A DNA stretch of 46,389 nucleotides from a virus (taxonomy: Duplodnaviria > Caudoviricetes), in IMG/VR virus record IMGVR_UViG_3300037851_001501, positions 1 through 46,389 of that record; one strand, written 5' to 3'. Both the position numbers and the translations under genes were made by a program. Numbering within the stretch: position 1 is the stretch's first letter; every line of letters begins with the position of its first letter. Below, piece after piece: positions 1,099-45,249 of the stretch. The notes under the pieces are model-generated. The model searched no databases, was not told where the DNA came from, and saw only the letters and a program-made list of their open reading frames with translations.

Positions 1099-1184
1099 AA
1101 TGGAGACGGTCATAGGCGGTAATCTCCTGCTGTTCTGATAATACGGTTTATCGGAACGGACTGCAAGAAAAGGATGGAAAGCGG

Positions 1185-1550
1185 ATGGAAATGGGAGCGG
1201 TTCTGGCGGCGCTGGCGTTATTCGGGGTAGGCTACAACGCGCTGACGGCGTGGCTGGAGGCGAGGGGGCTGGACCGGGGGTATACGGCTTATTTAGTGGT
1301 GGGCGGGGTGTTGGTGACGCTGGCAGGATTGGGGTCGGTGGATGGGTGGCCGGCGGCTGGGAAGGCGCTGCTATGCTTTGCAGCGAGCGGATTGCCGATG
1401 GTGATCGGCTCGATGGCGCGCAGTGCGCAAGCCCGACGGCGGGACGAGGAAGGGGCAAAGCGGCTTGCCCGGGAGTTATTGCATGACGAGACCTATCATC
1501 GGGCGGACGGCGTTCCGTCAAGAGGTGCAGCGGGCGATCAATGCAAATAA
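1185..1550 (+). CDS. Small membrane protein (about 3 TM helices)
   Basis: Three hydrophobic stretches; AGGA upstream. Confidence 0.65.
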   Translation: MEMGAVLAALALFGVGYNALTAWLEARGLDRGYTAYLVVGGVLVTLAGLGSVDGWPAAGKALLCFAASGLPMVIGSMARSAQARRRDEEGAKRLARELLHDETYHRADGVPSRGAAGDQCK

Positions 1551-1725
1551 GGCGGCGCGGGAGGCGTTGCGGCGGATCATTGACGATGACCCGGGGCCGC
1601 AGATGCTGGCATTGCTGATTGCGAGGGCAGCGAATGCGCTGGGTACGAATTTGGAGGCGCTGCAGATTATTGGGAGAATCGGTGAGCTGGCGCGGAAGCG
1701 GGGCCAGCAAGACCTGGACGAGTGA
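1483..1725 (+). CDS. Hypothetical helical protein
   Basis: ATG at 1483 after GGAG; phage-like codon usage. Confidence 0.55.
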   Translation: MTRPIIGRTAFRQEVQRAINANKAAREALRRIIDDDPGPQMLALLIARAANALGTNLEALQIIGRIGELARKRGQQDLDE

Positions 1726-1746
1726 CTTGGGTGAAAGGAGTAGGGC

Positions 1747-2860: not shown

Positions 2861-2861
2861 C

Positions 2862-3245
2862 GTGATGATCCTACTCAATTTCTCTCACCCGCTCACGCCT
2901 GCACAGATCGCCCAGGCCGCCGCGCTGGCCGGGCAGCCCATCGAAACCGTGGTGGACCTGCCCGTGCATTTCGACGGCGGGCAGCCCTTTGTGGCCCAAC
3001 TCCACACCTTGGCCGCGCGCATCCCGCTAGACGCCGCTACGCTGCAAACCGCGCCCATACTGGTTAACCTGCCCTCGCTCAACTTCATCGCTGGCCTGCT
3101 GCTGGCCGAGCTGCACGGGCGCATAGGCTACTTCCCCACCATCCTGCGCCTGCGGCGGGTGGATGACAGCCTTCCGCCACGCTTTGAAGTGGCGGAGTTG
3201 CTGAACCTGCAAGAGGCGCGCGACCAGGCGCGCCAGGCTCGGTAG
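2862..3245 (+). CDS. csx15: Csx15-like CRISPR-associated Rossmann-fold protein (putative cOA binder/ring nuclease)
   Basis: N-terminal ILLNFSHPLT motif, LVNLP(S)L, LAELHGRIGYFPTILRLR and FEVAELLNLQ..R..AR match my recollection of the Csx15 family; GGAGG RBS. Confidence 0.8.
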   Translation: MMILLNFSHPLTPAQIAQAAALAGQPIETVVDLPVHFDGGQPFVAQLHTLAARIPLDAATLQTAPILVNLPSLNFIAGLLLAELHGRIGYFPTILRLRRVDDSLPPRFEVAELLNLQEARDQARQAR

Positions 3246-3275: not shown

Positions 3276-3309
3276 GATTATCAACCTTACACGATTATCA
3301 ACCTTACAC
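3276..3309 (+). repeat. 17-bp tandem duplication GATTATCAACCTTACAC x2
   Basis: Exact copies at 3276-3292 and 3293-3309. Confidence 0.95.
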
Positions 3310-3311
3310 CT

Positions 3312-3381
3312 TTCACAGTGGTCGTGGTGACGCCTTACGACGGAGCAATCGGGACTAACTATTAATAACTATTAATTATGA
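3312..3381 (+). repeat. 70-bp direct repeat A, copy 1 (copy 2 at 4366-4435)
   Basis: TTCACAGTGGTCGTGG(T/G)GACGCC...TAACTATTAATAACTATTAATTATGA with 1 mismatch; 3254-3272 also matches 4351-4368 with a 1-nt indel. Confidence 0.95.
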
Positions 3382-3449
3382 ATTGCTATCGGGACAAGTT
3401 CAGCGGGACGGTGTTCTGTAAGCCCGCAGTGAAGCCATACCCGGCGCCG
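3378..3449 (+). repeat. 72-bp direct repeat B, copy 1 (copy 2 at 5206-5277)
   Basis: ATGAATTGCTATCGGGAC...CCCGGCGCCG is identical in both places. Confidence 0.95.
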
Positions 3450-3501: not shown

Positions 3502-4419
3502 ATGAAAGCGTATAAGATTGTTAATGAAGTAGATGGGCATCGCGGGTTGTTCTACCACAAGGGCTACAACGAAGACCCGCGCCCGTTCAACCCGTCGGGG
3601 GATTGTGAACCCGGCGGTATCTACTACGCCAGGGAGGATACCCTGGCGTTCCTCGGTTATGGGAACGCCGTCTACCGGGTAACGCCGGTGGGCGAAGAAT
3701 ACGCCAACCCCATCCCGCCGCGCAAGTATAAGGCGCACGCCGTAATCTTAGAGCGGGTCGGTGAGGTCTCCGACCTGGCGGTTATCCGCCTGGTCTTAGC
3801 TGAGGGCGCAAACGTCCACGCCGGCAACGATCGTGCCCTGATGTGGGCGGCAACGAACGGGCATACCGACGTGGCGCGCCTGTTGCTGGATGCAGGCATG
3901 GATGCCCAAGCGTGCAACGGCGCGCTGCTGCGGGCGGCGGAGAATGGGCGCGCCGCCATTGTGCGCCTGCTCCTGGATGCCGGCGCGGATGTTCACGTGT
4001 ATTCCGACGCGCCGCTGCAGTGGGCGGCGGAGAATGGGCGCGTTGAGGTTATGCGCCTGCTCCTGGAGGCAGGCGCGGATGTCCACGCCGATAACAACTA
4101 CGCGCTGCGGCTGGCGGTGCATCAAGGGCACGCCGAATGCGTGCGCCTGCTCCTGGATGCCGGCGCGGATGTCCGCGCCTGTCGCAACGAGGCATTAATG
4201 GCGGCGGCGGAGAACGGGCACGCCGAATGCGTGCGCCTGCTGCTGGCGGCGGGCGCAGATGTTCACGCCGGCGATGACGCTGCGCTGCGCCTGGCGGCTA
4301 AGCGGGCGCACACAGAATGCGTTCGCCTGCTCGTTGAGGCAGGCGCGGGAACGGAATCGGAGCCGTTCACAGTGGTCGTGGGGACGCCTTACGACGGAGC
4401 AATCGGGACTAACTATTAA
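3502..4419 (+). CDS. Ankyrin-repeat protein
   Basis: About 6 repeats of GADVHA..D.AL..AAENG..ECVRLLL.A; likely start at ATG 3502 (MKAYK). Confidence 0.9.
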   Translation: MKAYKIVNEVDGHRGLFYHKGYNEDPRPFNPSGDCEPGGIYYAREDTLAFLGYGNAVYRVTPVGEEYANPIPPRKYKAHAVILERVGEVSDLAVIRLVLAEGANVHAGNDRALMWAATNGHTDVARLLLDAGMDAQACNGALLRAAENGRAAIVRLLLDAGADVHVYSDAPLQWAAENGRVEVMRLLLEAGADVHADNNYALRLAVHQGHAECVRLLLDAGADVRACRNEALMAAAENGHAECVRLLLAAGADVHAGDDAALRLAAKRAHTECVRLLVEAGAGTESEPFTVVVGTPYDGAIGTNY

Positions 4420-4435
4420 TAACTATTAATTATGA
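4351..4435 (+). repeat. Direct repeat A, copy 2
   Basis: Matches 3254-3272 joined to 3312-3381; supplies the C-terminus and stop of the ankyrin gene. Confidence 0.93.
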
Positions 4436-4447
4436 GTAGGAGGCGGG

Positions 4448-5086
4448 ATGTTTTCTAAGGATCTGCAACGAGGGTTGATTCAGTGGACGGTGGCGTACAG
4501 CGGCCACGAGGCTCAGCGACATTATATCGGGCTGAGCGGGATTGGGGATTGCGAACGGGTCATCTACGACCGCTTCCGGCAGGGGACGCGGGCGACGGTG
4601 GAGGATCACTTGCTTTGCCGGTTGAGCTATGAGCTGGAGGGGCGGCTGGTAGAGCGGCTGAAGGAGATGGGGGTATACAGCGTCGGGGAGGAGATCGTGC
4701 TCTTCGATGGGCTGGTGCAGGGGCATACGGACGGGGTAATTGGGCGGCAGGATCTGCTGGAGATCAAGACATTGGCGCAGGAACGTTGGATTCCGGAGGG
4801 ACGGAAGCTGCCGGGGCGAGTGTTCTGGCAGGTGCAGGCGTACCTGCATTACACGGGGCGGAAATATGGGCATATCGTGTATCTGGCGAGGGACACGGGG
4901 CTGATCTATACGACGGGGGTGTCGTACAGCGAGGGGGTGGGGCGCAAGATTGAGGAGAAGGTGGGGAGGCTGGTGGAGGCGGCGATGGCGTACAGTCGCC
5001 CGGCGTGTACATGCGGGCGTTGTGAAAATAATGGTCATCAGAATGCCGCCGGCCTTCAGCTCGGCGGCGAAAGGAGCGAATCATGA
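4448..5086 (+). CDS. Solo Cas4-like PD-(D/E)XK exonuclease
   Basis: SGIGDCER (first Cys), GHTDG...LLEIKT, QVQAY, C-terminal CTCGRC (three further Fe-S Cys). Confidence 0.8.
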   Translation: MFSKDLQRGLIQWTVAYSGHEAQRHYIGLSGIGDCERVIYDRFRQGTRATVEDHLLCRLSYELEGRLVERLKEMGVYSVGEEIVLFDGLVQGHTDGVIGRQDLLEIKTLAQERWIPEGRKLPGRVFWQVQAYLHYTGRKYGHIVYLARDTGLIYTTGVSYSEGVGRKIEEKVGRLVEAAMAYSRPACTCGRCENNGHQNAAGLQLGGERSES

Positions 5087-5292
5087 GTACGAGGGTTTTG
5101 TTGGCGGTGTTGATTGCAGTCGTCGCTCTGGCATGGGCAGCGGCGGCATTGGGGTCTTCGGCGGGAGAGCGGGTGTATCTGCCGCTGGTGGCGCGCGCGC
5201 CGGCGATGAATTGCTATCGGGACAAGTTCAGCGGGACGGTGTTCTGTAAGCCCGCAGTGAAGCCATACCCGGCGCCGTTGCAGTTTCGCTAA
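5083..5292 (+). CDS. Small secreted/membrane protein with VYLPLV motif
   Basis: Signal-peptide-like N-terminus; RVYLPLVAR resembles the Chloroflexota YLPL sorting motif; AAGGAG RBS. Confidence 0.7.
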   Translation: MSTRVLLAVLIAVVALAWAAAALGSSAGERVYLPLVARAPAMNCYRDKFSGTVFCKPAVKPYPAPLQFR

Positions 5293-5313
5293 TCCGCTCG
5301 CGGCTAAACGACG

Positions 5314-7906: not shown

Positions 7907-8049
7907 AAGAATGGACGGGTAGCTCCGATAACAATCCTTAGCGGAAGGGTCTCCCCTACCCCGCGGGTATGTCGGGGGGCGGGGATGGTGGATGGTAATG
8001 CACGCTTTTTGGCGTACGCAAGCAGGCATGATGGCAGGCTGGAGGAGCG

Positions 8050-10849: not shown

Positions 10850-12038
10850 TGCCATGGTAGAGGCGATCACGACGATGGCGGCGCTGGAGAGCGGGGTGCC
10901 GGCGAGTGTGCTGCAGGCGCGAGGAGGGATCAACCCGGTTGCGGCGCTAGGGTACGGGGCATGGAGGCCAATGTTGGCGCATTGGCTGCCGGAGGAGGAG
11001 GCGTACTTAAGGGAAAAGATGGGGGAGGGGGAAATGACAGACGCAGAGATCGGGGCGGCGCTGGGACGGTCGGCGGAGGCGGTGAGGATTCGCCGGCAGA
11101 AGAGGGGATTCCCGGCGCGCTCGAAGAGGCCGGGGTGGCTGACGGGACATCAGGCGGCGAAGAGGATGGGGTGGGATGTGCATAAGGTGATTATGTTGGC
11201 GAGCCGAGGGCTGCTTCGATGCGAGAGGCTTCCCGGTCAACGCGGGATACTGACGATCCGCGAGGAGCGGCTGGAGCGGTGGGCGCTGGATCCGGTAAAT
11301 TGGGTGTATTTCACGCACGAGAAGGTGTGTGATGAGCGCCTGCGGCGTCTATTGAAGCGGCGGGCGGAGCGGTGGGGGGATGCGTGGTGGACGACGGGGC
11401 AGGCGGCGGCGTGGCACGGGGTGGAGGCTGCGGTGGTGCAACGAGCTATCGAGCGAGGGGAGATTCCGGCGGTTAAGTGGGGGAATTGGTGGGTGAGGCG
11501 GAGCGATATGCTGCGGCTGGGGCTTTATTTTGCGAAGAATAAGGGGGGCGGGCATGTGGAGGCGTGGAGCGATGAAGGGGATGCGTTTATGACGCTGTCG
11601 AGGGCGGTGGGGTTGAGTTGGCAGGCGACGGCGCGGTTGATGGGCCGGAAGCATGTGTCGTTCCGCTGGCAGCGGATGTGGGAGGAGGGGCAGCAGCGGG
11701 TGTTGGTGGATAAATATGGCTATGAGGTGGAGGTGGACGAGGAGCGGCGGTTGGTGTGGGCGGATTGGCGGGTGTACGCGGGCCGCTTTCCGGCGGTGAG
11801 GCGGGCGATGGAGAAGTTCAGGCGGTGGATAGATGGGGATCGGGGGCTGTTTGCGGGGAGTTTTCGACGGGGGGAGGAGGTATCCCAGGATTTATTGGTG
11901 GTGCGGGGAGTGTTGGCAAACTGGGCGCTGTGGTACGGTTTGGATGCCAAGTTGAGTTTTGCGTGCCATCGTCCGGGCAGGCTGGAACGGGCGGTAGAAG
12001 CGCTGCGAGGGTTAGGCGCGGATCCGCTGGGAAGATAA
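10836..12038 (+). CDS. Multi-HTH DNA-binding protein (excisionase/MerR-like domains)
   Basis: W..EEE..L...IGAALGRS..AVR HTH; two xis-like segments (LTGHQAAK..., TTGQAA...IERGEIPAVKWG.WWV). Confidence 0.7.
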   Translation: MNSIDAMVEAITTMAALESGVPASVLQARGGINPVAALGYGAWRPMLAHWLPEEEAYLREKMGEGEMTDAEIGAALGRSAEAVRIRRQKRGFPARSKRPGWLTGHQAAKRMGWDVHKVIMLASRGLLRCERLPGQRGILTIREERLERWALDPVNWVYFTHEKVCDERLRRLLKRRAERWGDAWWTTGQAAAWHGVEAAVVQRAIERGEIPAVKWGNWWVRRSDMLRLGLYFAKNKGGGHVEAWSDEGDAFMTLSRAVGLSWQATARLMGRKHVSFRWQRMWEEGQQRVLVDKYGYEVEVDEERRLVWADWRVYAGRFPAVRRAMEKFRRWIDGDRGLFAGSFRRGEEVSQDLLVVRGVLANWALWYGLDAKLSFACHRPGRLERAVEALRGLGADPLGR

Positions 12039-12048
12039 TGGAGATTAG

Positions 12049-12876
12049 ATGATCTGTCGTATTTGCGGGAATGATGGTATTGGGAGCGAGTGGTCTTCCT
12101 GGGTGAGCGATACATTCACCAATTATGACTTGCTCCTGCCCGGAGAGATAATCTGCGATGACTGCCGATTCTGGTTCGGCCAAAAATCGGACGAGTTGCA
12201 GCGGCGCATGAGAAAGGACAAGCCCCAGAAGATGCAGAACTACTCCCACTTCATCATCGGCGGGGAATGGCGTCCGGTGGGCAAGGGCGACAAGTCGGCG
12301 ATGGCGCAGATACTAACCACGCCGCCATTCCCCGAGATGGCGGCGGTGGCCGTCAGCGGGCAGAAGCATCTGGCCTTCCGGGCGCGGCGCAACCCGCCCG
12401 GCGGCAGCGCTGGATGGGTGCAATACGAGGAGCAGGCCGTCTGGGTGATCCAGGACGACCTGCGGGGATTGCTGAAGTCCATCGAGGCCTTATATGCAGG
12501 GTTCAGCAAGAGCGAGATCGAGAGCGGGCGCTATTTCCCGCAGCGCATCTTGCGGTTTGGCGTGGATCGCTGGCAAGAGTTAGAGGCATGTATTAAGCAC
12601 AAACGGTCAACCGTTATATTTTCTCTGGCGCTGTTCATGGCGCAAAGGAGCGAAGATGGAAACGACGAAGGAGCAGGCGGTAGCACTTCTCAAGTTGATC
12701 TGGCGGGGCGTACCGCCGGCATACAAGAGCCGTTACCGGATGACGATCTGGGAGCAATTCGAGAACGAAATCCGCAGCGCGGCATACACGAGCGACGTGG
12801 GGCGGTTCATCAGCTCTCTATGTTCCCATCTGGGGGCGAGAATAGGGAACACGGCAGGCGAGCGCGAAGAAGCTGA
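12049..12876 (+). CDS. csf1: Type IV CRISPR Csf1 (Cas8-like large subunit)
   Basis: CRIC...DTFTNYD...ICDDC zinc finger and SGQKH motif; first gene of the csf operon. Confidence 0.8.
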   Translation: MICRICGNDGIGSEWSSWVSDTFTNYDLLLPGEIICDDCRFWFGQKSDELQRRMRKDKPQKMQNYSHFIIGGEWRPVGKGDKSAMAQILTTPPFPEMAAVAVSGQKHLAFRARRNPPGGSAGWVQYEEQAVWVIQDDLRGLLKSIEALYAGFSKSEIESGRYFPQRILRFGVDRWQELEACIKHKRSTVIFSLALFMAQRSEDGNDEGAGGSTSQVDLAGRTAGIQEPLPDDDLGAIRERNPQRGIHERRGAVHQLSMFPSGGENREHGRRARRS

Positions 12877-16403: not shown

Positions 16404-16463
16404 GAGGGAATTTCATGGTCTGGTTTAGCACCGCTAATGGACCTTAGCGGAATGGAGGGCAGA

Positions 16464-17885: not shown

Positions 17886-18064
17886 TGAATTACTATCTTT
17901 ATACACAAATCCCCGGCGCGGGAAAGGGCTGGACGCTGGGAGGGCGGGGAGGAGGGCTGCTCTCATTCGCCGGCGGATACGCCGCTGCGGCGTGGGACGG
18001 CGACGAGGATGGAGACGGTATCGGGTGCGAGAGCTGATAAGCCTTGTTATCGCGGCTAAGGAGA

Positions 18065-20390: not shown

Positions 20391-20990
20391 ATGGATGATG
20401 TGATCGAAGAAGATGACGCGGGGGCTTTCCCTGCTCCAGCAAATGCGCCAGGTCAGGCGCAAAGCCGACGCGCCTACAGTAAGCTACTGGAAGAGAAGCG
20501 GGATGAGTGCCCGTGGTGGAGCGCGTATCTTGATCTTCGATCCGAGGGGTGGGATTGGCGGAAGGCGGCTTTTATTGCATGGTCGGCGCTGCCGGCGGAG
20601 AAGCGCTGGCCGAAAACTCAGCAGGAGCTGGCGCGGGATGTGCTGGGGCTGCATTCGGATAGGACGCTGCGGAAATGGCAGCAGAAGAATCCGAGGGTGG
20701 CAGAGCGGATCGAGACGGCGCTGCTGGCTCCGCTGCGGGAGCGGCTGCCGAATGTGATTGCGGCATGGGTAGCGGTGGCGGAGATGCGCGATCCATCGGC
20801 GCACAAGGATCGCATTACGCTGCTGCAAACGATGAAGGTGTATAAGCCGCCGGCGAAGAGTGTGGAGTTGACAGGGAAGGACGGGGCGGCGGTGGCGGTG
20901 GACTTCGATGCGGAGTACCGCAAGGATATGGCCGACCTGATGAAGCGGATGAATGCAGAGCAGGCTCCAGCGCCAGAAGACGATGAATGA
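20391..20990 (+). CDS. terS: Terminase small subunit
   Basis: HTH (QQELARDVLG..SDRTLRKW), VELTGKDG motif; overlaps terL. Confidence 0.75.
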   Translation: MDDVIEEDDAGAFPAPANAPGQAQSRRAYSKLLEEKRDECPWWSAYLDLRSEGWDWRKAAFIAWSALPAEKRWPKTQQELARDVLGLHSDRTLRKWQQKNPRVAERIETALLAPLRERLPNVIAAWVAVAEMRDPSAHKDRITLLQTMKVYKPPAKSVELTGKDGAAVAVDFDAEYRKDMADLMKRMNAEQAPAPEDDE

Positions 20991-22467
20991 GCTGCCCGCG
21001 AAGCGGCTATGGTTCTTGACGAAATATCTGGACTTGAAAGATGCCACCGGGGATCCGGAGGCACGCTGGCAAGTTTTCCAGGTAGCGCACCTTAACAATC
21101 AGGAGCAATTTTCGATTGAGTTGAAGAGCCGCCAGGTGGGCTGGAGTTGGACGACAGCCGCCGGGGCGGTAGCGGATGCGAGTTTAGAGAAGCGCAGCAC
21201 GTATCTATTTGTCTCGATCAACCTGGACGAGGCGAAGGAGAAAATCCGCTACGCCCGTCAGGTCATCGAAGGGCTTCGGAAAGAGGTACGTCCGAAGCTG
21301 TTGACAGATAATGCTACCGAGCTGGAGTTCGATAACGGCAGCCGCTTAATCAGCCATCCATGCCGGCCAATACGGGGTAAGGCAAAGGCGGTGGTGTATC
21401 TGGATGAATTTGCGCATTATCCGAAGGATCGGGAGATATACGCGTCTGCGGTGCCGGTGACAACGCGAGGGGGGCGGTTGCTGATTGGGAGCAGCCCGCT
21501 GGGGGCATCAGGGCAGTTCTGGGAGATTTTCGAGGAGAAGATCCAGCCGTATCCAGGATACCGCCGGGAGATGATCCCATGGTGGTTGATTCCGGGGCTA
21601 TGCCGGGATGTGGACGAGGCGCGAAAGTTGGCGCCGATGATGATGACCGAGGAGCGGGTGCGGGTCTTCGGTCTGCCGCGTTTGGTGCAGATCTTCGAGA
21701 ATATGCCGCTGGACGACTTCCGGCAAGAATACGAGTGCGCCTGGGTGGATGAGGCGGTGGCGTGGATTTCGTGGGATGAGATCAAGCGCAACCAGGTGGA
21801 GGCGCAGGGCGGGCAGCATTGGTTTCGTAAGGCGAAGACGGTGGACGATGCGATGCTGGCAATCGAGGAGACGGCGCTGGCGATTAAGGAGGGTAAGGTG
21901 GAGGCGGCGCTGGCGGGTGGGATGGATGTGGGGCGGAAACGCAATTTGAGCGAGTTGGGGTTTGTGGGTAAGGGGGCGACGGAGGAACGTCCGCTGCGGC
22001 TGATGATTAGCCTGGCGAATACGGAATTCGACGATCAAAAGGCGGTGGTCCTGAAGGCACTGGAGACCCTGCCGGTGATTAAGTTGTTGATTGACCGTAA
22101 CGGCCTGGGGATGCAGTTGGCGGAGGATGTGTCGAGGGCGTCGGGGAAGGCGGAAGGGGTAGATTTTACGAATGCGGCTAAGGAATTATGGGCGGTTGAG
22201 TTGAAGGTAAAGATGCAGCGGGGGAAGGCGCCGATTCCGTTGGATCGTGATCTGAGTTATCAGGTGCATAGCATCAAGAAGAAGTACACGGCGGCGAAGA
22301 ACGCGGTGTTCGATATAAAGGCGAACGAGGCGCACCATGCGGACAAATTCTGGATGCTGGCTCTGGCAATGTGGGCTTCAGGCCAGACGGCGGGGGCATC
22401 TGCGGCGGTGGTGGATGCGGTGGAGAGCGAGGGGCGACGAGAGCGGAAGCGGAGCGCGTGGAGGTAG
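20983..22467 (+). CDS. terL: Terminase large subunit (Mu gp28/Terminase_6-like)
   Basis: KSRQVGWS, VYLDEFA, SSPLG; nuclease motifs GMDVGR, IDRNGLG, HADKFW. Confidence 0.92.
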   Translation: MNELPAKRLWFLTKYLDLKDATGDPEARWQVFQVAHLNNQEQFSIELKSRQVGWSWTTAAGAVADASLEKRSTYLFVSINLDEAKEKIRYARQVIEGLRKEVRPKLLTDNATELEFDNGSRLISHPCRPIRGKAKAVVYLDEFAHYPKDREIYASAVPVTTRGGRLLIGSSPLGASGQFWEIFEEKIQPYPGYRREMIPWWLIPGLCRDVDEARKLAPMMMTEERVRVFGLPRLVQIFENMPLDDFRQEYECAWVDEAVAWISWDEIKRNQVEAQGGQHWFRKAKTVDDAMLAIEETALAIKEGKVEAALAGGMDVGRKRNLSELGFVGKGATEERPLRLMISLANTEFDDQKAVVLKALETLPVIKLLIDRNGLGMQLAEDVSRASGKAEGVDFTNAAKELWAVELKVKMQRGKAPIPLDRDLSYQVHSIKKKYTAAKNAVFDIKANEAHHADKFWMLALAMWASGQTAGASAAVVDAVESEGRRERKRSAWR

Positions 22468-22546
22468 GTCTCCCCTACCCTACCCGTTTATCGCCGCTAA
22501 TATTCCTTAGCGGAGCTATTTTGAAGGCGAAAGCGAGAGGTGAGAG

Positions 22547-24304: not shown

Positions 24305-25196
24305 GATCAGGGCGTGGCTGCGCCAGGCGCTGAAGGGGGTGGAGGCGACGTGGAATGAGTCGAATCTGGTGCTGGAGAACCTGGCAGTGCTGCATGAGAA
24401 GCTGCTGCGGCTGTTGACGGAGAGCGGGCAGTTCAACTCCTCAGGGATGCAGGCGTTGATGCGCGAGCTAGATTACATTTTATTGCAGCACGCGGGGCAT
24501 ATCGGGGAGCTGGCGCAGGCCGCCCAGCGGCGGGCATGGGCGCGGGGAGTGGAGCAGTTCGATGAGACGATGAGCCTCTTCGAGCTGAGTTACGTGAGGG
24601 GGCTGACGGGGATGGAGAGCGACCTGGCGCGGCAGTTTTTTACGATTGACCGGATTAGCGGGGTGACGGCGGAGATGATGACGGCGATTCGGGCGCAGGT
24701 GCTGGCGGGGGTGTTTTTGGAGAAGACGCCATTCGAGGTGATGGCGGTGATTACGAATGTGATCGGGATTCGAGATTTGCGGGGGTACCGGCAGATTGGG
24801 ACGACGGGGATCAGTGCAAAGGCGGAGCGGATACTGCGGACGGAGTTAATGACGGTGCAGAATGCGGGGGGTTGGCAGCGGAGGCAGGATGCGGTGAAGC
24901 GCTACCCAGACCTGGAGGAGGTATGGATGGCGACTGGGGATGGGCGGACGCGGGACGATCATCTGACGGCGCACGGGCAGCGGAAGCCGGTGAAGGGGTA
25001 TTTCGTGGTGGGTGGGGAGAAGGCGCGCTTTCCTGGGGACCCGTCGTTGAGCGCAGCTCAACGTGTAAACTGCCGCTGTGCGGCTGCCCCTTTCCGGGCG
25101 GAATGGGGCAGTGTGGAGGATATTCTGGAACCGCTGACGAGGGCGATCCAGGCGGAGAAGGGTAAAAGGCAAGCCACGGGCAGTACCGATAAGTGA
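24288..25196 (+). CDS. Minor head morphogenesis protein (Mu gpF/SPP1 gp7-like)
   Basis: AERILRTE, W.ATGDGRTRDDH, FPGDP, NCRC. Confidence 0.88.
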   Translation: MATKREIRAWLRQALKGVEATWNESNLVLENLAVLHEKLLRLLTESGQFNSSGMQALMRELDYILLQHAGHIGELAQAAQRRAWARGVEQFDETMSLFELSYVRGLTGMESDLARQFFTIDRISGVTAEMMTAIRAQVLAGVFLEKTPFEVMAVITNVIGIRDLRGYRQIGTTGISAKAERILRTELMTVQNAGGWQRRQDAVKRYPDLEEVWMATGDGRTRDDHLTAHGQRKPVKGYFVVGGEKARFPGDPSLSAAQRVNCRCAAAPFRAEWGSVEDILEPLTRAIQAEKGKRQATGSTDK

Positions 25197-25200
25197 TCTT

Positions 25201-25455
25201 ATGAGTATCGTTATTGGCAATGGCGGCGAGCGGCGGAGGAGTGCGTGGCGTGAGGCGGGGGGCGATGATGGCCGCGGGGCGAGGAGTGAGGACGAGGCGC
25301 AGCGGGAGGCGGGAACGCGGATGATGGAGGTGAGCCTGCGAGAGGAGCAACTGTTGCTGCGGCTGCGGATGTTGGGAGCAGGGGTGTATGAGGTAGCAGT
25401 GAGGAAGAGCCAACGGGGGATGTGGGGGCTGTTGGAGGGGCGGGTGGTGGAATGA
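25201..25455 (+). CDS. Small hypothetical protein
   Basis: Fills the gap; true start may be internal (MMEVSLREE). Confidence 0.45.
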   Translation: MSIVIGNGGERRRSAWREAGGDDGRGARSEDEAQREAGTRMMEVSLREEQLLLRLRMLGAGVYEVAVRKSQRGMWGLLEGRVVE

Positions 25456-25464: not shown

Positions 25465-27756
25465 ATGACGATCAGCGAAAATATCATTCTGACGGCGCGG
25501 AACGATACGCGGACGGCCTTCCGGGAGATGGAGCAGGATGCGCGGAGGGCGACGGAGCAAATATCGAAATTCGATATGAGCGGCAACCAGGCTTTTGCGG
25601 GCGGGCTGAACCGGGGCAGTACGAGCCTGCGCCAGTTCGGAGATATGCTCGTTTCGGCGGCGGATAAGGCGGGTCTGGGGACTGCCCAGATTCGCAAGAT
25701 GGCCGATGCGACGGGCATTTTCAGCGATGAGCAGTTGTGGGCGGCGACTTCGGCAGGATTGATGCAGTCGAAGGCTTCACAACTGGCCCAGGCGGTGGCG
25801 GATGGGTCTTTGACGACAAGAGAGGCGGGGGCGGCGTTCCGGCAGTATGCGAATGCGCATGTGACGTCGGTGGGAGCGGTTGACCAGTTGAAGGGGTCGG
25901 TGGGCGCTTTGTGGGGGACCATCGGGGGGATGGTGACGAGCGGGCTGCTATTGGCGGCAGGGCAGAAGATCATCCAGTTTGGGAAAGACAGCCTGGCAGC
26001 GGCGGACGACGCGGCAAGAACACAGGCGCAGCTCAACGCGGTGATTCGCTCAACCGGTGGGGCGGCGGGAGTGACGGCGGAGGGGGTGAATGCGCTTGCG
26101 GGGGCGCTTTCGGGCCTGACGGGGGTGGACGACGATCTCATCATCCAAAATGAGGCGTTGATGTTGACGTTTAAGAATGTGGGGGAGGATGTGTTCTCGC
26201 GTGCGAACCAGGCGGCGCTGGATATGAGCGCGGTGATGAAGCAGGATTTGCAGAGCAGTGTGATTCAGGTAGGCAAGGCGCTCAATGAACCGGTGGAGGG
26301 AGCAGGGGCGCTGCGACGGGTGGGAGTGCAGCTCACCGATCAGCAGGAGGAGATGATCGAGGCTTTCGTGAAGTCTGGGGATGTCCTTTCAGCGCAGAAG
26401 GTGATCCTAGAAGAACTAGAATCGGAATTCGGCGGGGCGGCTGAGGCGATGCATAATGCAGGCGGTGGGGCGGATGCGTTGGCGGTTTCGGTAGGCAATT
26501 TGAAGGAGGCATTCGGGGCTGATTTGATGCCGGCGGTGAAGGAGGCAAGGGGGGAGCTGGAAGACTGGGTGGATGGCCTCACGGGGGCGATCTCGGCAGA
26601 GACGGCATTGAAGGCTGCGGAGGAGGAGGGGATCATTACCTGGCGGGAGGCGCAGGAGCAACTGAATAGGATGATGATGACATCTTATTCGGCAGGGGAT
26701 GTTATGGCGTGGCTGGCGGAGAGGGAGGGGGAGGTCTATGGGGCGGAACGGGCATTGGGGGATACGCGGCGGGAGGGGATCGAGTTGTTGAGGGGGTATG
26801 CGGCGACGGTGGCAGAGGCGGAGGAGGCGCAGCGGAGGTGGGACGAAGCGCTGCGGGCGTCCGGCGGTGGGACGATGCAGGCATACCAAGCCATGGAGCG
26901 ATATTCTGCGGAGCTGGCGCTGGCGGATGAGGCGTTGGGGCGGATGGGGCAACGGGCGATGGAGGCGTACCGGGCGATGGAGCGGTTTAGCGCGGCGGGG
27001 GCGCTGGCGGCGGAGCAACGCGAGAAGATCGGCAGCCTTTTGGATATGTTGGATCGGGATGTAGGTTCGCCGATCGGGGGTTTCATCAAGGATTTGGAGT
27101 GGTTGCAGGCGGGCGGGTGGCGGATCAATGCGGCGTTCGAGGCGTTGAAGGCGGGACTGGCGAGCGGGGAGATTTCACCGGCGGAGGCGCAGAGCTTTGC
27201 GGCGCCGTTGTTCGTGGCGGCGCAGGATTTGCAGGTTGAGCTGGATATGATTAGCGGGGAGGAGGCGGAAAAGAATTTGATGGCTACGTTGGGGGTGTCG
27301 CTGACGACGGCGAAGACGATGATCGAGGGGACGGACGGGATTTCTGGGGCGCTGGACCGGATCACGGGGACGGAGTATGTGTTGAATTTCCGGTTCAATT
27401 ACCAGGGGGCGTTGCCGGAGGGGTTTGGGATCGGCGGTGGTCTGCCGCCATCCACGACGCTGCCGTCAGGGGGAGGGGGAGGAGGGGGACGGATCAACCC
27501 CGGGTTGTTGGGTGGGGGGATGGAGACGATGATTCCGCCTGGGGAAGCAGGTGCGGCGGTGCGCACGCCGACCGGCGGGCCGGCAGGGGCGACGCTGCTG
27601 CTGGCAGGCGAGGGCGGCGGCGGAGGGGATATGTATGTGGAGCAGACGATCATTGCCATGCCGGGGATGGATGTTGAGGCTCTTGCGGCGGAGAGTGTGG
27701 CGCGGTTGGATGCGGCGCGGCGGGCGTGGGCGGCGGGTGCGGGATATGTAGGGTAA
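25465..27756 (+). CDS. Tail tape measure protein
   Basis: 763 aa, Ala/Gly-rich and helical; IILTARND N-terminus; STGGAAG.TA...GVDDD...LLTF-like...GKALNEP..G..ALRRVG tape-measure core. Confidence 0.85.
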   Translation: MTISENIILTARNDTRTAFREMEQDARRATEQISKFDMSGNQAFAGGLNRGSTSLRQFGDMLVSAADKAGLGTAQIRKMADATGIFSDEQLWAATSAGLMQSKASQLAQAVADGSLTTREAGAAFRQYANAHVTSVGAVDQLKGSVGALWGTIGGMVTSGLLLAAGQKIIQFGKDSLAAADDAARTQAQLNAVIRSTGGAAGVTAEGVNALAGALSGLTGVDDDLIIQNEALMLTFKNVGEDVFSRANQAALDMSAVMKQDLQSSVIQVGKALNEPVEGAGALRRVGVQLTDQQEEMIEAFVKSGDVLSAQKVILEELESEFGGAAEAMHNAGGGADALAVSVGNLKEAFGADLMPAVKEARGELEDWVDGLTGAISAETALKAAEEEGIITWREAQEQLNRMMMTSYSAGDVMAWLAEREGEVYGAERALGDTRREGIELLRGYAATVAEAEEAQRRWDEALRASGGGTMQAYQAMERYSAELALADEALGRMGQRAMEAYRAMERFSAAGALAAEQREKIGSLLDMLDRDVGSPIGGFIKDLEWLQAGGWRINAAFEALKAGLASGEISPAEAQSFAAPLFVAAQDLQVELDMISGEEAEKNLMATLGVSLTTAKTMIEGTDGISGALDRITGTEYVLNFRFNYQGALPEGFGIGGGLPPSTTLPSGGGGGGGRINPGLLGGGMETMIPPGEAGAAVRTPTGGPAGATLLLAGEGGGGGDMYVEQTIIAMPGMDVEALAAESVARLDAARRAWAAGAGYVG

Positions 27757-27783
27757 GCTCCGCTAATGACGCTTAGCGGAGCT
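27756..27783. repeat. Perfect 11-6-11 palindromic site AGCTCCGCTAA-TGACGC-TTAGCGGAGCT (best of at least 11 dispersed copies)
   Basis: Related copies at 1131-1158, 7921-7948, 16427-16454, 18030-18057, 22490-22517, 25182-25209, 31593-31620, 38107-38134, 40938-40965, 45207-45234. Confidence 0.9.
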
Positions 27784-31291: not shown

Positions 31292-31603
31292 ATGAGCCGC
31301 CCTCTCGCGATTCAGGAGGTTGTGATGATCGGACCGGTGCAATCGGTGGTGCTGTCGAGCAGCGCGGCGGTGAAAGGCGGGCCGGGGGTGGTGTATGGGC
31401 TGATCTTGACGGCTGGGGCGGATGCGGCGAGCGTGGTGCTATACGACAACACGAGCGGGGCGACGCCGAAGTTGATTGGGACGGTGAAGGCGGCGATCAA
31501 CACTTCGGTGGAGGTGAGCTTTCCGAACGGGGTGGCGTTTGGGACGGGTTGCTATGCGACGATCACGGGAACGACGCCGGATGTTACGGTGCTGTACAGC
31601 TAA
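31292..31603 (+). CDS. Small beta-rich structural protein
   Basis: LYDNTS...FPNGVAFGTG..AT pattern; stop codon forms the TAA of a palindromic site. Confidence 0.65.
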   Translation: MSRPLAIQEVVMIGPVQSVVLSSSAAVKGGPGVVYGLILTAGADAASVVLYDNTSGATPKLIGTVKAAINTSVEVSFPNGVAFGTGCYATITGTTPDVTVLYS

Positions 31604-31639
31604 TCCGCATTAGCGGAGCTATACGAGAGGCAGGCAGCA

Positions 31640-34867: not shown

Positions 34868-36079
34868 ATGGCGAGCATTACCCGATTGAGCGCTTTTCGG
34901 GCGCGTTTAGATGCGCTGCTGCAAAAGGTGGCGACGAGCGATCTGAGCGATGCAGATCGTGATCTGTGCGTGCGGCAGGCGATGGCGGAGTACAGCCGAG
35001 ATTATCCGCGGCGGCGGACGGCGGAGTTTGCCGGGGCCGCTAATTCGTATTATCTGCTCTATGGGCGGGCTGTGGATGTGAGCGAGGCGGGAAGAGACGC
35101 GGGGATTAAGGTGACATCCTCGGGGGCGGATCAGCAGTTGGGGATCAAGTTCACGCTGACGCGGGCGATGGATGTGCACCAGGTGGCTTTATGGTTATCA
35201 CGGACGGGGGCGACGCTGGACGGTACGATGAAGGCGTCACTGTATACGGACGCGGCGGGGGCGCCCAGCAGGTTGATCGTAGATTCGAGCGAGGTAGATA
35301 TTGACGATTATGATGGCGCGCCGCAAGGGCGCTATGCGCGGGTGATGTTTCCCCTGCCGCGGGTCTTCGAGCTGGCGGCGGGCACTTATCACGCGGTGTT
35401 AAGCACGAGCGGTTATACCCATGTGAACGGGAGCGCGGAGCTACTGGTGGGGGTAGATCAAGGCGATGTGACCAATACGGTCAGCACATATAACGGGTCA
35501 GCCTGGAGCGCGTACGGCACGGCGAGCGCGGGGATCATCGAGGTAACGGCGAGCCTGCCCGGGTGGCGGGAAGGGAGCGGGGGTATTGTGTCGGTGGAGT
35601 ATCCGGCGGCAGATACGAGCTTGAATGAGGAGCCGCAATTGCTTGACGGGGAGGATTACGGGCTGTTCGAGACGGAGCAGGGGACGTGGCTGCGCCTGTA
35701 CGGGTATAGCCCAGCCAGTACAGAGACGGTGAGGCTGGTGTATAGCACGCCTTATCGCTGGGTGGAGGCGGCGGACGCGGCGATTGATCTGCCAGATTAC
35801 CACTTCGAGGCGGTGTGCAATCTGGCGGGTGCGGCGGCGTGCGAGTGGCTGGCAACAGGGTATGGGCAGAAGCGCGAGCCGAGTATTTCGGCGGATTCCG
35901 TGGAGCGGAGGACGCAGAGCGACGTTTATTTGAGTCTGGCAAACCATTTCCGAAAGGCGTATCGATTCCTGATCGGGGAGGGTAAGCGGGAGAGGTTGCC
36001 GGGTATGGCGATAGTGGATATTGATTTGGGGCCGAGCGTAGGCAACGATTTCTTATTCCACCGGAAGGGAGGGCGGTGA
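34868..36079 (+). CDS. Head-tail adaptor-like protein with inserted beta-sandwich domain
   Basis: Helical N- and C-terminal parts (AMAEYSRDYP; EAVCNLAGA..C..LA) around a beta-rich insert. Confidence 0.55.
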   Translation: MASITRLSAFRARLDALLQKVATSDLSDADRDLCVRQAMAEYSRDYPRRRTAEFAGAANSYYLLYGRAVDVSEAGRDAGIKVTSSGADQQLGIKFTLTRAMDVHQVALWLSRTGATLDGTMKASLYTDAAGAPSRLIVDSSEVDIDDYDGAPQGRYARVMFPLPRVFELAAGTYHAVLSTSGYTHVNGSAELLVGVDQGDVTNTVSTYNGSAWSAYGTASAGIIEVTASLPGWREGSGGIVSVEYPAADTSLNEEPQLLDGEDYGLFETEQGTWLRLYGYSPASTETVRLVYSTPYRWVEAADAAIDLPDYHFEAVCNLAGAAACEWLATGYGQKREPSISADSVERRTQSDVYLSLANHFRKAYRFLIGEGKRERLPGMAIVDIDLGPSVGNDFLFHRKGGR

Positions 36080-37390: not shown

Positions 37391-38108
37391 GACTGCGGGG
37401 CGTTTCGTACAGATATTGTTTGGCGGGTACGATCTGAGCGGGAGATCGAACCAGTTCAACGCGGAGGCGTCTTATGGGGAGATAGACGGGGCGGCATTTG
37501 GGGAGGGTGCGGATAATTCGTATCCGGGGATGCCGAGGGGGATGGTGGAGGCGACTACGCTGCTGGACCCGGAGACGGCGAGCAGCCATGAGGCGCTGAG
37601 CAGTCCAGGCGGGTACAGCGATAAGGTGTTGATGATTCTGCTGGGGCATAATACGACACCGACCATTGGGGATGCGGTGATAGCGCTGCTATGCAAGCAG
37701 TTCAAATATGCGCCGAAGGTACAGGTGAAGGCGGGGGTGTTGGCGGATGCAAATTTCTTGCACGCGGGGAAGGCGCTGGATTTCGCCAAGGCGCTGGCGA
37801 ACACGACAATCACAAATACGACTAACTTTGCGAGCGTGGACGCGGGGGCGGCGACAGCCAACGGGTATGCGGGGTATTTGCAGATCACGACGCCGGTAGC
37901 GAGCGATGTGTATGCGATCAAGCTGCAACACAGCACGGACAACTCGACGTGGGTGGACCTGGCGAGTTTCGCGGCGAACGGGCAGACGCGGACGAGCGAG
38001 CGGATCGAGGGGACGGGGACGGTGAACCGTTACCGGCGGTGCGTGGCGACGCGCTCTTCTGGGACGGGGCAGACGCTGGGGCTGACGGCGGCGATTGCGG
38101 CGATTTAG
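37383..38108 (+). CDS. Tail tube-like protein with C-terminal beta domain
   Basis: N-terminus (AGRF...DLS...YGEID...FGEG..NS.PGMP) is paralogous to 39793-40233. Confidence 0.7.
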   Translation: MSKTAGRFVQILFGGYDLSGRSNQFNAEASYGEIDGAAFGEGADNSYPGMPRGMVEATTLLDPETASSHEALSSPGGYSDKVLMILLGHNTTPTIGDAVIALLCKQFKYAPKVQVKAGVLADANFLHAGKALDFAKALANTTITNTTNFASVDAGAATANGYAGYLQITTPVASDVYAIKLQHSTDNSTWVDLASFAANGQTRTSERIEGTGTVNRYRRCVATRSSGTGQTLGLTAAIAAI

Positions 38109-38130
38109 GGCCGCTAAGGAGACTTAGCAG

Positions 38131-39780
38131 ATGAAGCTGGCCGGACGTTTCTTGAAGGTGTGGATTGACGATGCGAGCGGTACGCCGCGGGATGTGAGCG
38201 CGGACATCGAGAGCGTGGAGATCCCGGAGGGGTACGGCGAGCTGGATATGACCGGGATGGGGCAAGGGGGGGAGGATGCAGCGCCGGGGATGCCGGGCTT
38301 TCCAGTGGAGATGGTGGGGATGTTCAATCCGGCGGCGACGACGGGGCTGTTCACGGTGCTGAGCGGGATCATCGGGCAGTATGCAAGCAAGACGGTGACG
38401 ATTCAGGTGGGGAACAATGCGGCGCCGACGGCGACGGATCCGATCTTCGAGGGAGAGTTCTGGTTGCAGAAGATGTCTCCGGGGGCGGTGGTGAAGGGGA
38501 AGAAGGCATTGAAGGCGAGCTTCAAGCCGATGGGTGGGACTGCGCCGAGCTGGTGGACGACGGTGAGCGCGCCGGCGACATGGAGCCGGAGTCTGCCGTT
38601 TACGGTGCAACGGAATTGCCGGGTATTCCGAGCCTCGCCGGCGACATGGAGCATTGGGATGAATAAGCCGGTGGGGAAGGCTTATTACGTAAGCATGACG
38701 GGGAGCGACAGCAACGATGGGCTGACGGCAGCCACGCCGTTGCGGAGGGTAAGCACGGCGATCAATAAGGCGGACGTGGTGATGATTTATGTGGAGGCGG
38801 GGGTCTATGATTTCGATAATTCGTGGGCGACGATTGTCGCGGCGAAGAATCTGTCTATTATCGCGACGGGGGGAAGGGCGGTGTTCTCGGCGCGGTATGC
38901 AGGGCTGGCGTGGGCTAACGTGGGCAGCGATACGTATTCGACGAGCCGGACGAATGTGGCATGGGTGTACGATGCGAATGCGGAGCTGCGGGAGGCGAAC
39001 GGGTTGTACAAGAAGCTGGCGGCGGCGGCTTCGTTAGCGGAATGCCAAGCGACGGCGGGCAGTTTCTATTATGCAACGCCAATCCTGTATGTGCATTTGA
39101 GCGACGGTAGAGCGCCGGATGGCGACTGCCTGGTGATGATTGGGGCTGTGTCTGTATCCATGAATGTGTTCCGAGGGGCTTATACGCTGTACTGCGAGGG
39201 AATTGACTTCGAGGGGGGCTATAACAATGCGATGAGTATCTACTACAACGGGGGAGCGCCGACGGGTTACTTCGCCGACTGCACTTTCAGGTATTCGGCG
39301 AACGATAACGGTTTGGGAGCTTCGGGGGCGCAGTTGTATCTGCAAGATTGCGTGGCGGAGGGCAATTATAACGATGGGTTCACTTATGGGCTGTTGACGG
39401 TTAACAGCCATGCGGTGGAGATTGACTGCGTAGGCAGGTACAACGGGGAGAGCGGGGATATTAACAACGGGAGTACGATACATTACGGGAGTGTGGTGAG
39501 GCTCAACGGGGAGTATCACGATAACGTGGGTCGGAATATCCACGATGTCAATACGGGGGTACAGAGCTGGAATTTGGGATGTTATGCGCATGACTCGGCG
39601 AGCGAGGTGAATGACTGTAATTACGCGGTGGGTACGGGAGGAACGGGGGGAGAGATGTGGCTGGATAGTGTGACGAGCGACGGCAGCACGACGGATTTGG
39701 AGGAGAACAGCGGGGCGACGCTGCTGTACCGGAATTTAATCAGCGACGGGGTGTTCTTAGGCACTCCGGCGGAATATTAA
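38131..39780 (+). CDS. Tail tube domain fused to a pectin-lyase-like beta-helix
   Basis: First ~145 aa nearly duplicate 39793-40233; then YYVS..GSDSNDG.TAATPL and N..DG beta-helix turns. Confidence 0.75.
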   Translation: MKLAGRFLKVWIDDASGTPRDVSADIESVEIPEGYGELDMTGMGQGGEDAAPGMPGFPVEMVGMFNPAATTGLFTVLSGIIGQYASKTVTIQVGNNAAPTATDPIFEGEFWLQKMSPGAVVKGKKALKASFKPMGGTAPSWWTTVSAPATWSRSLPFTVQRNCRVFRASPATWSIGMNKPVGKAYYVSMTGSDSNDGLTAATPLRRVSTAINKADVVMIYVEAGVYDFDNSWATIVAAKNLSIIATGGRAVFSARYAGLAWANVGSDTYSTSRTNVAWVYDANAELREANGLYKKLAAAASLAECQATAGSFYYATPILYVHLSDGRAPDGDCLVMIGAVSVSMNVFRGAYTLYCEGIDFEGGYNNAMSIYYNGGAPTGYFADCTFRYSANDNGLGASGAQLYLQDCVAEGNYNDGFTYGLLTVNSHAVEIDCVGRYNGESGDINNGSTIHYGSVVRLNGEYHDNVGRNIHDVNTGVQSWNLGCYAHDSASEVNDCNYAVGTGGTGGEMWLDSVTSDGSTTDLEENSGATLLYRNLISDGVFLGTPAEY

Positions 39781-40807: not shown

Positions 40808-40853
40808 TTGGGGAGTTTGGGAAAGGGGTGGCGCTCACGCAGGCTTTCTCTTG

Positions 40854-40898: not shown

Positions 40899-40970
40899 GG
40901 GTAAGAGAGGGGGAAGATGAAGAGAGGGGACCCGGGTAGGGCTGATAATGATAGTTAGCGAAGGTGAAAC

Positions 40971-43448: not shown

Positions 43449-43456
43449 GAGGCGGT

Positions 43457-45208
43457 ATGGCTGTATGGGATGATTTGAACGATCTGACGGTAGAGGTGTA
43501 TGCGGAAGGCATCACACCGATAAGCGATGCGGAGGGGGAATTGCGGTTTGTGGAGCAGGTGGAGCTGGCGAAGGGGTACCCGGGCGGACTGTATCTGGAT
43601 GCGAGCTTCCGGGTGGCGCGGGATGTGCTGAAGAAGTGGGCGGCGGAGGGGGGGAAGCGGGCGTTGATTCGCAATAAGTTGACGCCGGTGTGGGAGGGAC
43701 GGTTGGGGAACCTGGAGCGGGTGTTGGAGGGGGACGCGGGGCAGTATGTGCATGTGACGGGTAAGGGTTTTTGGGGGGCGTATTTGATGCGGCGGAGGCT
43801 GCGGAAGCGGTGGGCGGATGCGCGGATCGAGGATGATATTTGGGTGTGGGGGGAGGGGTATTTGGCGGCGGCGATTGCGGAGTATGACCGGCATGGGAGG
43901 CTGCGGATCACGCCGAAGAACGAGGCGTGGGGGAGCGGGGATTATGCGGGCTTTGAGTACACAATGCCGACGGGGCAGACGATCAAGAAGATCACGTATG
44001 ACTATAACCAGGCGGGGGGTGATTTCAAGCTGATTTTCTATGATCCCAGCGCTACGAACGGGGATCATGTGATTGTAAACGGGGGAGGGAGCGGGACGGG
44101 GGGGAGTTATACGCTGACGACGCCGGTGCAGCGGATGCAACTGCGCTTTGTGGCGACGGCGGCGAATACGCCGGCGAACGATGGTTCGGTCTATGGGGAG
44201 ATCTTCAATGTGCGAGTGTACTCGGAGACGAGTGCGATCAACATGGAGGAGATCTTCAAGAATGTGGCGGGGATGGTCACGTCGTTGTCGAGCGATACGC
44301 GCTTGATCCAGGCAGCGGGAACGGCTTTAGCGCTGGATCCGTATGTGGCAGATGATTGGCCGGCCACGGCGGATGTGCTGGAGGAGGCGGCGAGCTTTGG
44401 CGACGGGGACGGGAATACGTGGGGGTTCGGGGTGAGGTGCTCGGAGCTGGCGGGGACGCCGGACGGGAAGCCGTTGTTGTTCCTGGAACAACGGCCGGCG
44501 CTGACAGATTACGATTATGTGGTGCGGGCGGGGGACGAGAACGTGATGGGGCCGGTGCAGCTTTATCAGGAGGATTCGGAGGAGGTGTTCAACTGGATCA
44601 TTGCGCAGCGGCGGGACGAGCGGGGGCGGGTGCAGTTTACGACGCCAGACGACGATGCGACGCTAAAGGATACGGACAGCATTGCGGCTTACGATGAGCA
44701 AGATTATGTGTTCGATGCGGGATCGGTGAGCGAGGCGGCGGCGATTGCGCGGGGGGTGAGGTTCTTGGCGATGAGGAAGGATGCGCTGTGGAAGCTGCGC
44801 TCTCCGCTGCGGGTGAGGGGGTATATTCGGCATAAACTGTCGGGGCTGATGATTCCGGCGAGCGAGATCGAGCCGGGGATGCGGGTGAAGTTCGAGGACT
44901 TCGTGGACGAGGATGTGGTGCTGCTGATTTCGATGACGCGGTATGCGCACGATGGGCAGGTATGCACGATCACGGCGGGGCCGTTGGAAGATGGGGTGAG
45001 GGCATTTGCGCCGAACGTTCCGGTGTACGAGGCGGACGAGGAGGATGAGCGGGGAACGCGAGGGGGAACGCGGCCGGAGGTGAGACATATCTACGAGCAC
45101 CTGGGGATGACACGGGCGGATTGGATTAAGCTGACGGCGGCTGAGAAGCTGGCGAAGAAGAGGATCTGGTGGAATAGGCGGCGGGAGAGGCGCGGGAGTT
45201 TGATGTAG
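43457..45208 (+). CDS. Tail tip/baseplate hub-like protein
   Basis: PGG...ASF, VWEGRL, DSIAAY; follows the Dit-like gene. Confidence 0.6.
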   Translation: MAVWDDLNDLTVEVYAEGITPISDAEGELRFVEQVELAKGYPGGLYLDASFRVARDVLKKWAAEGGKRALIRNKLTPVWEGRLGNLERVLEGDAGQYVHVTGKGFWGAYLMRRRLRKRWADARIEDDIWVWGEGYLAAAIAEYDRHGRLRITPKNEAWGSGDYAGFEYTMPTGQTIKKITYDYNQAGGDFKLIFYDPSATNGDHVIVNGGGSGTGGSYTLTTPVQRMQLRFVATAANTPANDGSVYGEIFNVRVYSETSAINMEEIFKNVAGMVTSLSSDTRLIQAAGTALALDPYVADDWPATADVLEEAASFGDGDGNTWGFGVRCSELAGTPDGKPLLFLEQRPALTDYDYVVRAGDENVMGPVQLYQEDSEEVFNWIIAQRRDERGRVQFTTPDDDATLKDTDSIAAYDEQDYVFDAGSVSEAAAIARGVRFLAMRKDALWKLRSPLRVRGYIRHKLSGLMIPASEIEPGMRVKFEDFVDEDVVLLISMTRYAHDGQVCTITAGPLEDGVRAFAPNVPVYEADEEDERGTRGGTRPEVRHIYEHLGMTRADWIKLTAAEKLAKKRIWWNRRRERRGSLM

Positions 45209-45249
45209 GGCTGCTAATTGTTCTTAGCGGCGGAGTGAAGAGGAGGTCG

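Follow-up and report, generated by a model that had tools for sequence, protein, structure and literature searches.

Evenly spaced palindromes across a Chloroflexota-type phage genome: probable target sites of a phage-borne tyrosine recombinase and a possible role in genome closure

The window analysed here is a stretch of 46,389 nucleotides from a tailed phage (Duplodnaviria, Caudoviricetes; IMG/VR record IMGVR_UViG_3300037851_001501), along which short palindromic sites of the form TAA-N6-TTA recur from one end to the other. The phage encodes a tyrosine recombinase, a Cas4-like nuclease, a helicase, a primase, a ParB protein, type IV cas-like genes, a terminase, a portal, a capsid and tail proteins. 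The recombinase gene (1..1098, plus strand) specifies a protein of 365 amino acids with a core-binding and a catalytic domain (Pfam PF00589/PF02899). The large terminase (Terminase_6N; 20953..22467, plus strand) has its best cultured-phage matches at 35-36% identity. By record titles, the closest relatives of the recombinase in genomes belong to the Chloroflexota, mostly Anaerolineae; the host therefore probably belongs to this group, and the window appears to represent a Chloroflexota-type temperate phage.

A first-pass annotation of this DNA had listed 11 dispersed 28-bp sites, and all of them were recovered in the window sequence, at the same coordinates and with the same letters. The pattern GMTAA-N6-TTAK gave 24 strand matches in the window versus 0.38 in shuffled sequence, indicating that the sites are not due to chance. 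A half-site matrix derived from the 11 sites detected 12 window sites at 19.9 bits or more, the next-best match reaching 9.0 bits, and with any other spacer length from 0 to 13 at most two matches exceeded 12 bits. With a matrix built from seven relatives, the window being excluded, 13 window sites scored 18.0-27.5 bits, the next match scored 8.1 bits and shuffled sequence gave 0.03 matches per shuffle. This relatives-only matrix added sites at 35033 and 12028 to the original 11. Letter counts in the left and right arms of the window sites are alike, so the arms are near-symmetric, and the 12 window spacers compared differ pairwise by at least two letters in either orientation, in keeping with the earlier statement that every 6-bp spacer is different.

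No strand was assigned to any site. Site 1 (1131..1158, spacer TACGGT) lies 33 bp past the recombinase stop codon, as first reported. Site 2 (7921..7948, CAATCC) follows the primase gene and occupies the same position in two relatives, G003 and G004. The newly added site 3 (12028..12055, TGGAGA), which scored 18.4 bits with the window-free matrix, overlaps the stop codon of a helix-turn-helix (HTH) gene and precedes the type IV cas-like genes. Site 4 (16427..16454, TGGACC) and site 5 (18030..18057, GCCTTG) come next, then site 6 (22490..22517, TATTCC) between the terminase and portal genes, site 7 (25182..25209, GTGATC) over the stop codon of a head-morphogenesis gene, site 8 (27756..27783, TGACGC) at the stop codon of the tape-measure gene and site 9 (31593..31620, TCCGCA). 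Site 10 (35033..35060, TTCGTA), also new, falls inside the gene at 34868-36079, and site 11 (38107..38134, GGAGAC) links the stop codon of one tail gene to the start of another. The series ends with site 12 (40938..40965, TGATAG) and site 13 (45207..45234, TTGTTC). A degenerate site (5282..5309; strand likewise unassigned), with an intact left arm, a decayed right arm and a half-site score of 13.6, separates the Cas4-like nuclease gene from that of the helicase, at a position where a full site is present in G003, G004 and the prophage G005; it is probably the remnant of one and stands outside the count of 13.

The sites had all been described as intergenic or overlapping a stop codon. This no longer holds, as site 10 lies 165 bp inside a head-tail gene of 403 codons and, across eight genomes, 17 of 106 sites are inside called genes. 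In prophage G005 a site occupies the same codon position as site 10 although the amino acids differ, indicating that the constraint acts on the DNA. We rejected an RNA hairpin or terminator, since the arms vary independently, no Rfam match was obtained and a terminator-like score was seen at only one of six sites between 20 and 39.9 kb. A ParB/parS reading was also set aside, having no fixed-spacer precedent. Another kind of palindrome, GC-rich and resembling repetitive extragenic palindromes, is present in three copies after gene ends (7870-7915, 37107-37152 and 40851-40896).

Two inverted 11-bp arms around a spacer of fixed length, 6 or 7 bp depending on the phage, are the layout of tyrosine recombinase core sites, as had been claimed. 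The recombinase of the window keeps its catalytic residues (R186, K212, H300, R303, H326 and Y335) and scores far below the XerC, XerD, XerA and XerS family cut-offs; its best PDB sequence match is XerA, with XerD and XerH also among the best solved relatives, and its AlphaFold model has a mean predicted local distance difference test score (pLDDT) of 81. No close relative was found in cultured phages (at most 27% identity), nor any relative in a single-protein search of viral contigs; the relatives that define its clade came from an alignment-based search. Of 77 clade proteins, 70 have the full R-K-H-R-H-Y set, five are truncated and two substituted, and one of the substituted proteins (L275) has no site in its 16.6 kb. 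Among 89 clade loci, a redundant set with many members cut short, 47 carry a site between 2.2 kb before and 1.3 kb after the end of the gene, often at the stop codon. For distant tyrosine recombinases, any site match was seen at 4 of 63 loci, and two of these four are part of a transposon-like unit that has a tyrosine recombinase of its own. This unit, from Aggregatilineales (L207:7810-12953, L202:265-3586), combines tyrosine recombinase, DDE transposase-like and ATPase-like genes, and immediately upstream of it lies a closely similar 11-6-11 site; in L207 a second site 1.8 kb further encloses one gene.

Phages with a single site and a conserved 7-bp spacer form one recombinase clade in a quick tree from which duplicates and proteins shorter than 300 amino acids had been removed (Shimodaira-Hasegawa-like approximate likelihood ratio test, 100), and arms resemble one another more closely inside a genome or group than across groups. 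The gene-linked site, the co-occurrence of enzyme and sites, the phage-specific arms and spacer length and the intact catalytic residues make the phage recombinase the likely partner, as the first-pass annotation had proposed. It is thus probable, and we hold this with good confidence, that the sites are a target grid which this enzyme binds and cleaves. A pairing of attP site and integrase was considered and rejected. The integrated prophage G424 has its only site in the interior, with a separate integrase at the far end, and the outermost sites of prophage G005 have different spacers. Separate tyrosine or serine integrases are also present in G001, G006, G008, G009, G010 and G012, and the window recombinase is presumably not the integrase. 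The system resembles the single-recombinase Xer systems XerA, XerS and XerH, in which a site is linked to the recombinase gene, but differs from them in its low family scores, in being phage-borne and in having many sites instead of one.

Binding without cutting would give a different picture, a regulatory grid on which the recombinase, acting like MrpR, or an HTH protein serves as repressor, roadblock or late-promoter regulator. MrpR of Bacillus phage SPbeta is a recombinase-fold lysogeny repressor of an element, SPBRE, dispersed over the phage genome (PMC10516654), and mycobacteriophage stoperators are spread genome-wide in tens of copies, many at gene junctions (PMC9283540). In the window, site 8 lies 10 bp upstream of an 11/12 match to a sigma-70-like promoter for the capsid gene, a position kept in G005, G432 and G433, and TTGACA occurs within 10 bp after site 5; the freely drifting spacers described below would also fit an operator. 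However, MrpR lacks most catalytic residues, three of seven being kept (PMC10516654), whereas all six residues checked are present in the clade enzyme, whose gene stands in a rightward early operon beside a separate HTH repressor gene. A plus-strand promoter-like match accompanies only one of six sites between 20 and 39.9 kb. Stoperators are asymmetric 13-bp elements bound by an HTH repressor monomer and have no variable spacer (PMC9283540), whereas the window sites are palindromic around a variable one. Operators are also not expected to show changes clustered within otherwise identical DNA. The operator alternative raised in the first-pass annotation loses ground on these points; we judge it unlikely.

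The sites might also be targets of the host XerC/XerD proteins, that is, true pdif sites or sites of integrative mobile elements exploiting Xer. The 11-6-11 layout with inner TAA/TTA triplets is that of dif and pdif (PMC13141974), and the right arms in relative G011 resemble the XerD arm TTATGTTA. As in the Acinetobacter pdif/dif modules, there are many 28-bp sites per replicon with varied 6-bp spacers; in the account given there, pdif sites have distinct XerC and XerD arms, rely on enzymes of the host, use a spacer more than once in the same plasmid and delimit accessory modules (PMC13141974). The phage sites have near-symmetric, phage-specific arms without distinct XerC and XerD halves, are gene-linked to a phage-borne enzyme, never repeat a spacer (0 of 804 pairs), run through essential genes and show no enrichment of synteny breaks; moreover, grids with 7-bp spacers exist. 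Among 401 host-class genomes, 30 had a match, mostly a single one, which is about the control level and shows no enrichment. An E. coli-like dif pattern matched 7 of 61 genomes, again the control level, and did not locate the host dif. In the G004 genome, 10 of 11 matches fall within 37 kb of prophage, and host flanks of 38, 31 and 19 kb beside prophages contain no sites. That the sites end at the prophage edges and are not enriched in the host class argues against host dif sites and host operators alike, and the host XerCD/pdif claim has accordingly become very improbable.

Grids were detected in the window and in eleven related phages and prophages, with 6-18 sites each and 136 in total. Beside the 13 sites of the window, there are 17 in G001, 16 plus one with a 7-bp spacer in G002, 6 in G003, 10 in prophage G004, 18 in prophage G005 (on one contig), 14 with 7-bp spacers in G008, 12 with other arms in G011, eight of 7 bp plus one of 6 bp in G428, 7 in G432, 6 in G433 and 9 in G413; G003 and G433 are fragments that lack the recombinase region. 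All five close capsid relatives (61-66%) have a grid among the structural genes. No site was seen in three distant ones (39-50%), of which the complete one, G436, lacks the clade enzyme and is free of sites over 56 kb. Other clustered palindromes (L036, L341, L356, L373, L398, G414 and G415) were left out of the counts, as relatedness or the clade enzyme was missing. One of these, an unrelated viral contig of 40% GC, contains five 28-bp TAA-N6-TTA sites that are identical, spacer included (L036:4597-6868); another, a provirus, has four 11-6-11 sites in 5 kb (G414:C1:11769-16667), and the clade recombinase is absent from its record. G433 contains short palindromic insertions similar to its site arms (L696:8470-8670, 19890-19970) that are absent from the near-identical L693 and L694. 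They could reflect the origin of new sites or an assembly artefact.

The main feature of the system is the even spacing of the sites over the whole genome. They occur roughly every 3-4 kb. In all 12 grids the gaps vary less than those between equal numbers of randomly drawn gene boundaries, with a coefficient of variation of 0.20-0.60 against 0.78-0.96 (p<0.05 for each grid). For G001, G002 and G008, none of 20,000 random draws was as even. In the window the coefficient is 0.50 with 12 sites (p=0.018) and 0.36 with 13 (p=0.0003). A weak host-side match in G005a (16642) was kept in the spacing test and dropped from the spacer tests, and the lone 7-bp site of G002 and lone 6-bp site of G428 were likewise counted for spacing and excluded from spacer comparison. 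Relatives sharing head and tail genes have sites at partly different junctions, the spacing being retained. Since positions turn over, spacing is kept and sites enter genes, selection seems to act on distance and not on gene identity.

We then compared the spacers. No identical pair was found within a genome among 804 pairs, with 0.7 expected. In nine 6-bp clade grids, a subset chosen after the data had been seen, 0 of 649 same-orientation pairs differ by one letter or less, with 5.0 expected (p=0.006); inverted pairs show no avoidance of near-identity. Recombination between pdif sites has been observed with identical or one-mismatch spacers (PMC13141974), and avoiding such pairs would therefore prevent deletions. 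Between genomes, spacers diverge. Orthologous sites of G003 and G004 share 30 of 36 spacer letters, compared with 0.77 at four-fold sites; relatives at about 70% identity share 2-5 of 6, and L120 and L263 only 2 of 6 at 98% overall identity. The spacers thus drift about as nearby DNA does and are not fixed family-wide addresses. In the latter pair (L120:11072 versus L263:2552), one site shows five closely grouped changes in its spacer and arm between nearly identical flanks, and the sites may be mutation hot spots. Where distant phages have a spacer in common at unrelated positions, for instance TGACGC in the window and in G005, we attributed this to chance.

The first-pass annotation had suggested a pdif-like system of module shuffling, in which the same enzyme and sites would be selected as addressed joints for the exchange of DNA between phages. 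Several comparisons are in line with it. G003 and G004 carry unrelated genes between two orthologous sites, with similarity resuming at the site starts (10435/56276 and 15079/62565); similarity blocks between L214 and L216 and between L221 and L258 end at a site centre; L214 and L217 share three of three spacers (18 of 18 letters) though arms and flanks differ; and, in near-identical genomes, small indels are concentrated immediately to the left of sites. However, in eight close, non-independent genome pairs, synteny breaks fell at 9 of 18 site boundaries versus 23 of 64 others (p=0.29), so that the expected enrichment of breakpoints was not observed. Spacers drift, sites fill the core head and tail operons and sit within genes, and exchange requires no even spacing. 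Exchange at the sites may occur without dominating; as the reason for which the grid was selected, we find it improbable.

The explanation that we favour relates the spacing to packaging. The 13 palindromes would be evenly spaced core sites at which the recombinase turns headful-packaged DNA with terminal redundancy into a circle, whatever the position of its ends. In headful packaging, 102-110% of the genome is packaged (PMC9006064), and redundant ends are closed by recombination (PMC9006064, PMC5557969). With a redundancy of some 8-10% of the genome, one duplicated site would always be included, and the same applies to any redundancy longer than the largest gap; in G001, G002 and G008 the largest gaps are 7.6, 8.5 and 9.0% of the record. 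If matching spacers are needed, as the analogy with pdif and lox suggests, each site would recombine in register and, since every spacer differs, solely with its own copy. Segment swapping between close relatives would be a by-product.

What would decide between the models is the packaging mode of the terminase. A grid in the structural genes was found in none of six phages with an HK97-type terminase cluster versus 10 of 14 others, a difference (p=0.011) to be read bearing in mind that the six share one head module and are not independent. The HK97-type terminase family is associated with cos packaging. These six phages carry the clade enzyme, and PF03354 was present in the three that were scanned. 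No annealing protein of the Erf, RecT or Sak type was recognised in the window or in the screened early genes.

Several observations weigh against this explanation. The absence of an annealing protein does not discriminate, because the single-site and HK97-type phages also showed none. The terminases of grid phages are 25-49% like cultured ones; the commonest matches the lambda gpA family (PF05876/PF20454), some members of which are cos packagers, and its nearest cultured matches are SPO1-like phages. Four phages that are not of the HK97 type (G012, G419, G429 and the fragment G420) have a single site, G418/L258 with an HK97-type terminase keeps two or three early-region sites, and the tyrosine recombinase of grid phage G413 is a different one, which looks intact and has a site directly downstream of its stop codon. 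Gaps above 10% exist, namely 6.8 kb in the window (13.7%), 8.3 kb in G428 and 7.4 kb in G413. Identical spacer pairs would be rare by chance anyway, and over all 12 grids the pairs with at most one mismatch number 4 of 804 versus 6.7 expected, which is not significant (p=0.19). Contigs of two runs, one of which may be the source of this DNA, revealed no joint at any site, which, these being contigs only, is no evidence of absence. Taken with these points, it is quite possible, at a confidence just short of even, that the grid chiefly closes headful-packaged, permuted DNA into circles through the phage's own recombinase. The fuller proposal is somewhat more tentative: a self-addressing grid in which a dedicated early recombinase serves twelve or more lox-like sites that are incompatible with one another and spaced to the redundancy. 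Such a grid would allow closure without homologous recombination, be gained and lost with the packaging motor and provide natural orthogonal site sets.

In-register recombination could also serve another purpose, such as reassembling whole genomes out of copies cut by nucleases, or forming and resolving multimers as the DNA replicates. This role likewise predicts evenly spaced sites, distinct spacers and conserved catalytic residues, and in single-site relatives the site lies just before the primase gene, as resolution sites often do. Such a role would help cos phages too, yet the six HK97-type phages have no structural-region grid, and one site suffices to resolve multimers. We regard this purpose as rather unlikely.

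Closure by a site-specific recombinase has a counterpart in phage P1, where Cre closes terminally redundant DNA when loxP falls in the redundancy. Common to both are a phage tyrosine recombinase that is not the integrase, a near-symmetric core site beside its gene and, as proposed here, the closing of ends. P1 has one main lox site of 13-8-13 layout; the present phages differ in having 6-18 sites of 11-6-11 or 11-7-11 layout, with distinct spacers, evenly spread, and in integrating. No evenly spaced multi-site recombination system in a phage was found in searches of open-access papers without their supplements. The parts are known in kind, as lox-type sites and pdif arrays. If the closure model is true, headful genomes have a different solution to closure, both site-specific and position-independent, genome layout is shaped by packaging length, and a link between terminal redundancy and site spacing can be tested. 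Recombinases with many natural, probably orthogonal sites with 6- or 7-bp spacers would also be of practical use in genome engineering.

Other features of the window were recorded. Direct repeats of 86 bp (91%; 3309-3394 and 4363-4448) lie on both sides of an ankyrin-repeat gene and contain an AT-rich TAA-N6-TTA with identical middles, and a 72-bp exact duplicate is present at 3378-3449 and 5206-5277. In the run that may be the source of this DNA, the contigs are fragmented around this locus and coverage is low at 4501-5000. The locus, which looks like a recent insertion, coincides with the single long gap in the window's grid. A Csx15 gene precedes it (2862-3245). Type IV CRISPR-like effector genes occupy 12049-15388, with Csf2- and Csf3-like genes below the NCBIfam cut-off and a phosphoadenosine phosphosulfate (PAPS) reductase-like gene; no array was noticed there, and relative G420 has similar genes. 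An ARAGORN tRNA-Pro call at 41205-41292 lies within a coding frame of 825 amino acids and, having no Rfam match, is probably false. The tape-measure gene (25465-27756) sits between the head-morphogenesis and capsid genes, whereas in G005 and G432 it has the usual tail position. A move through the sites at 25182 and 27756 was rejected, as the left junction has no site and no matching pair surrounds the gene in G005. Finally, a fusion encoded at 38131-39780 combines a tail-tube-like N-terminus with a hydrolase or tail-fibre-like domain, and the tail-tube-like part is duplicated as a separate gene at 39793-40233 (81% over 300 nt).

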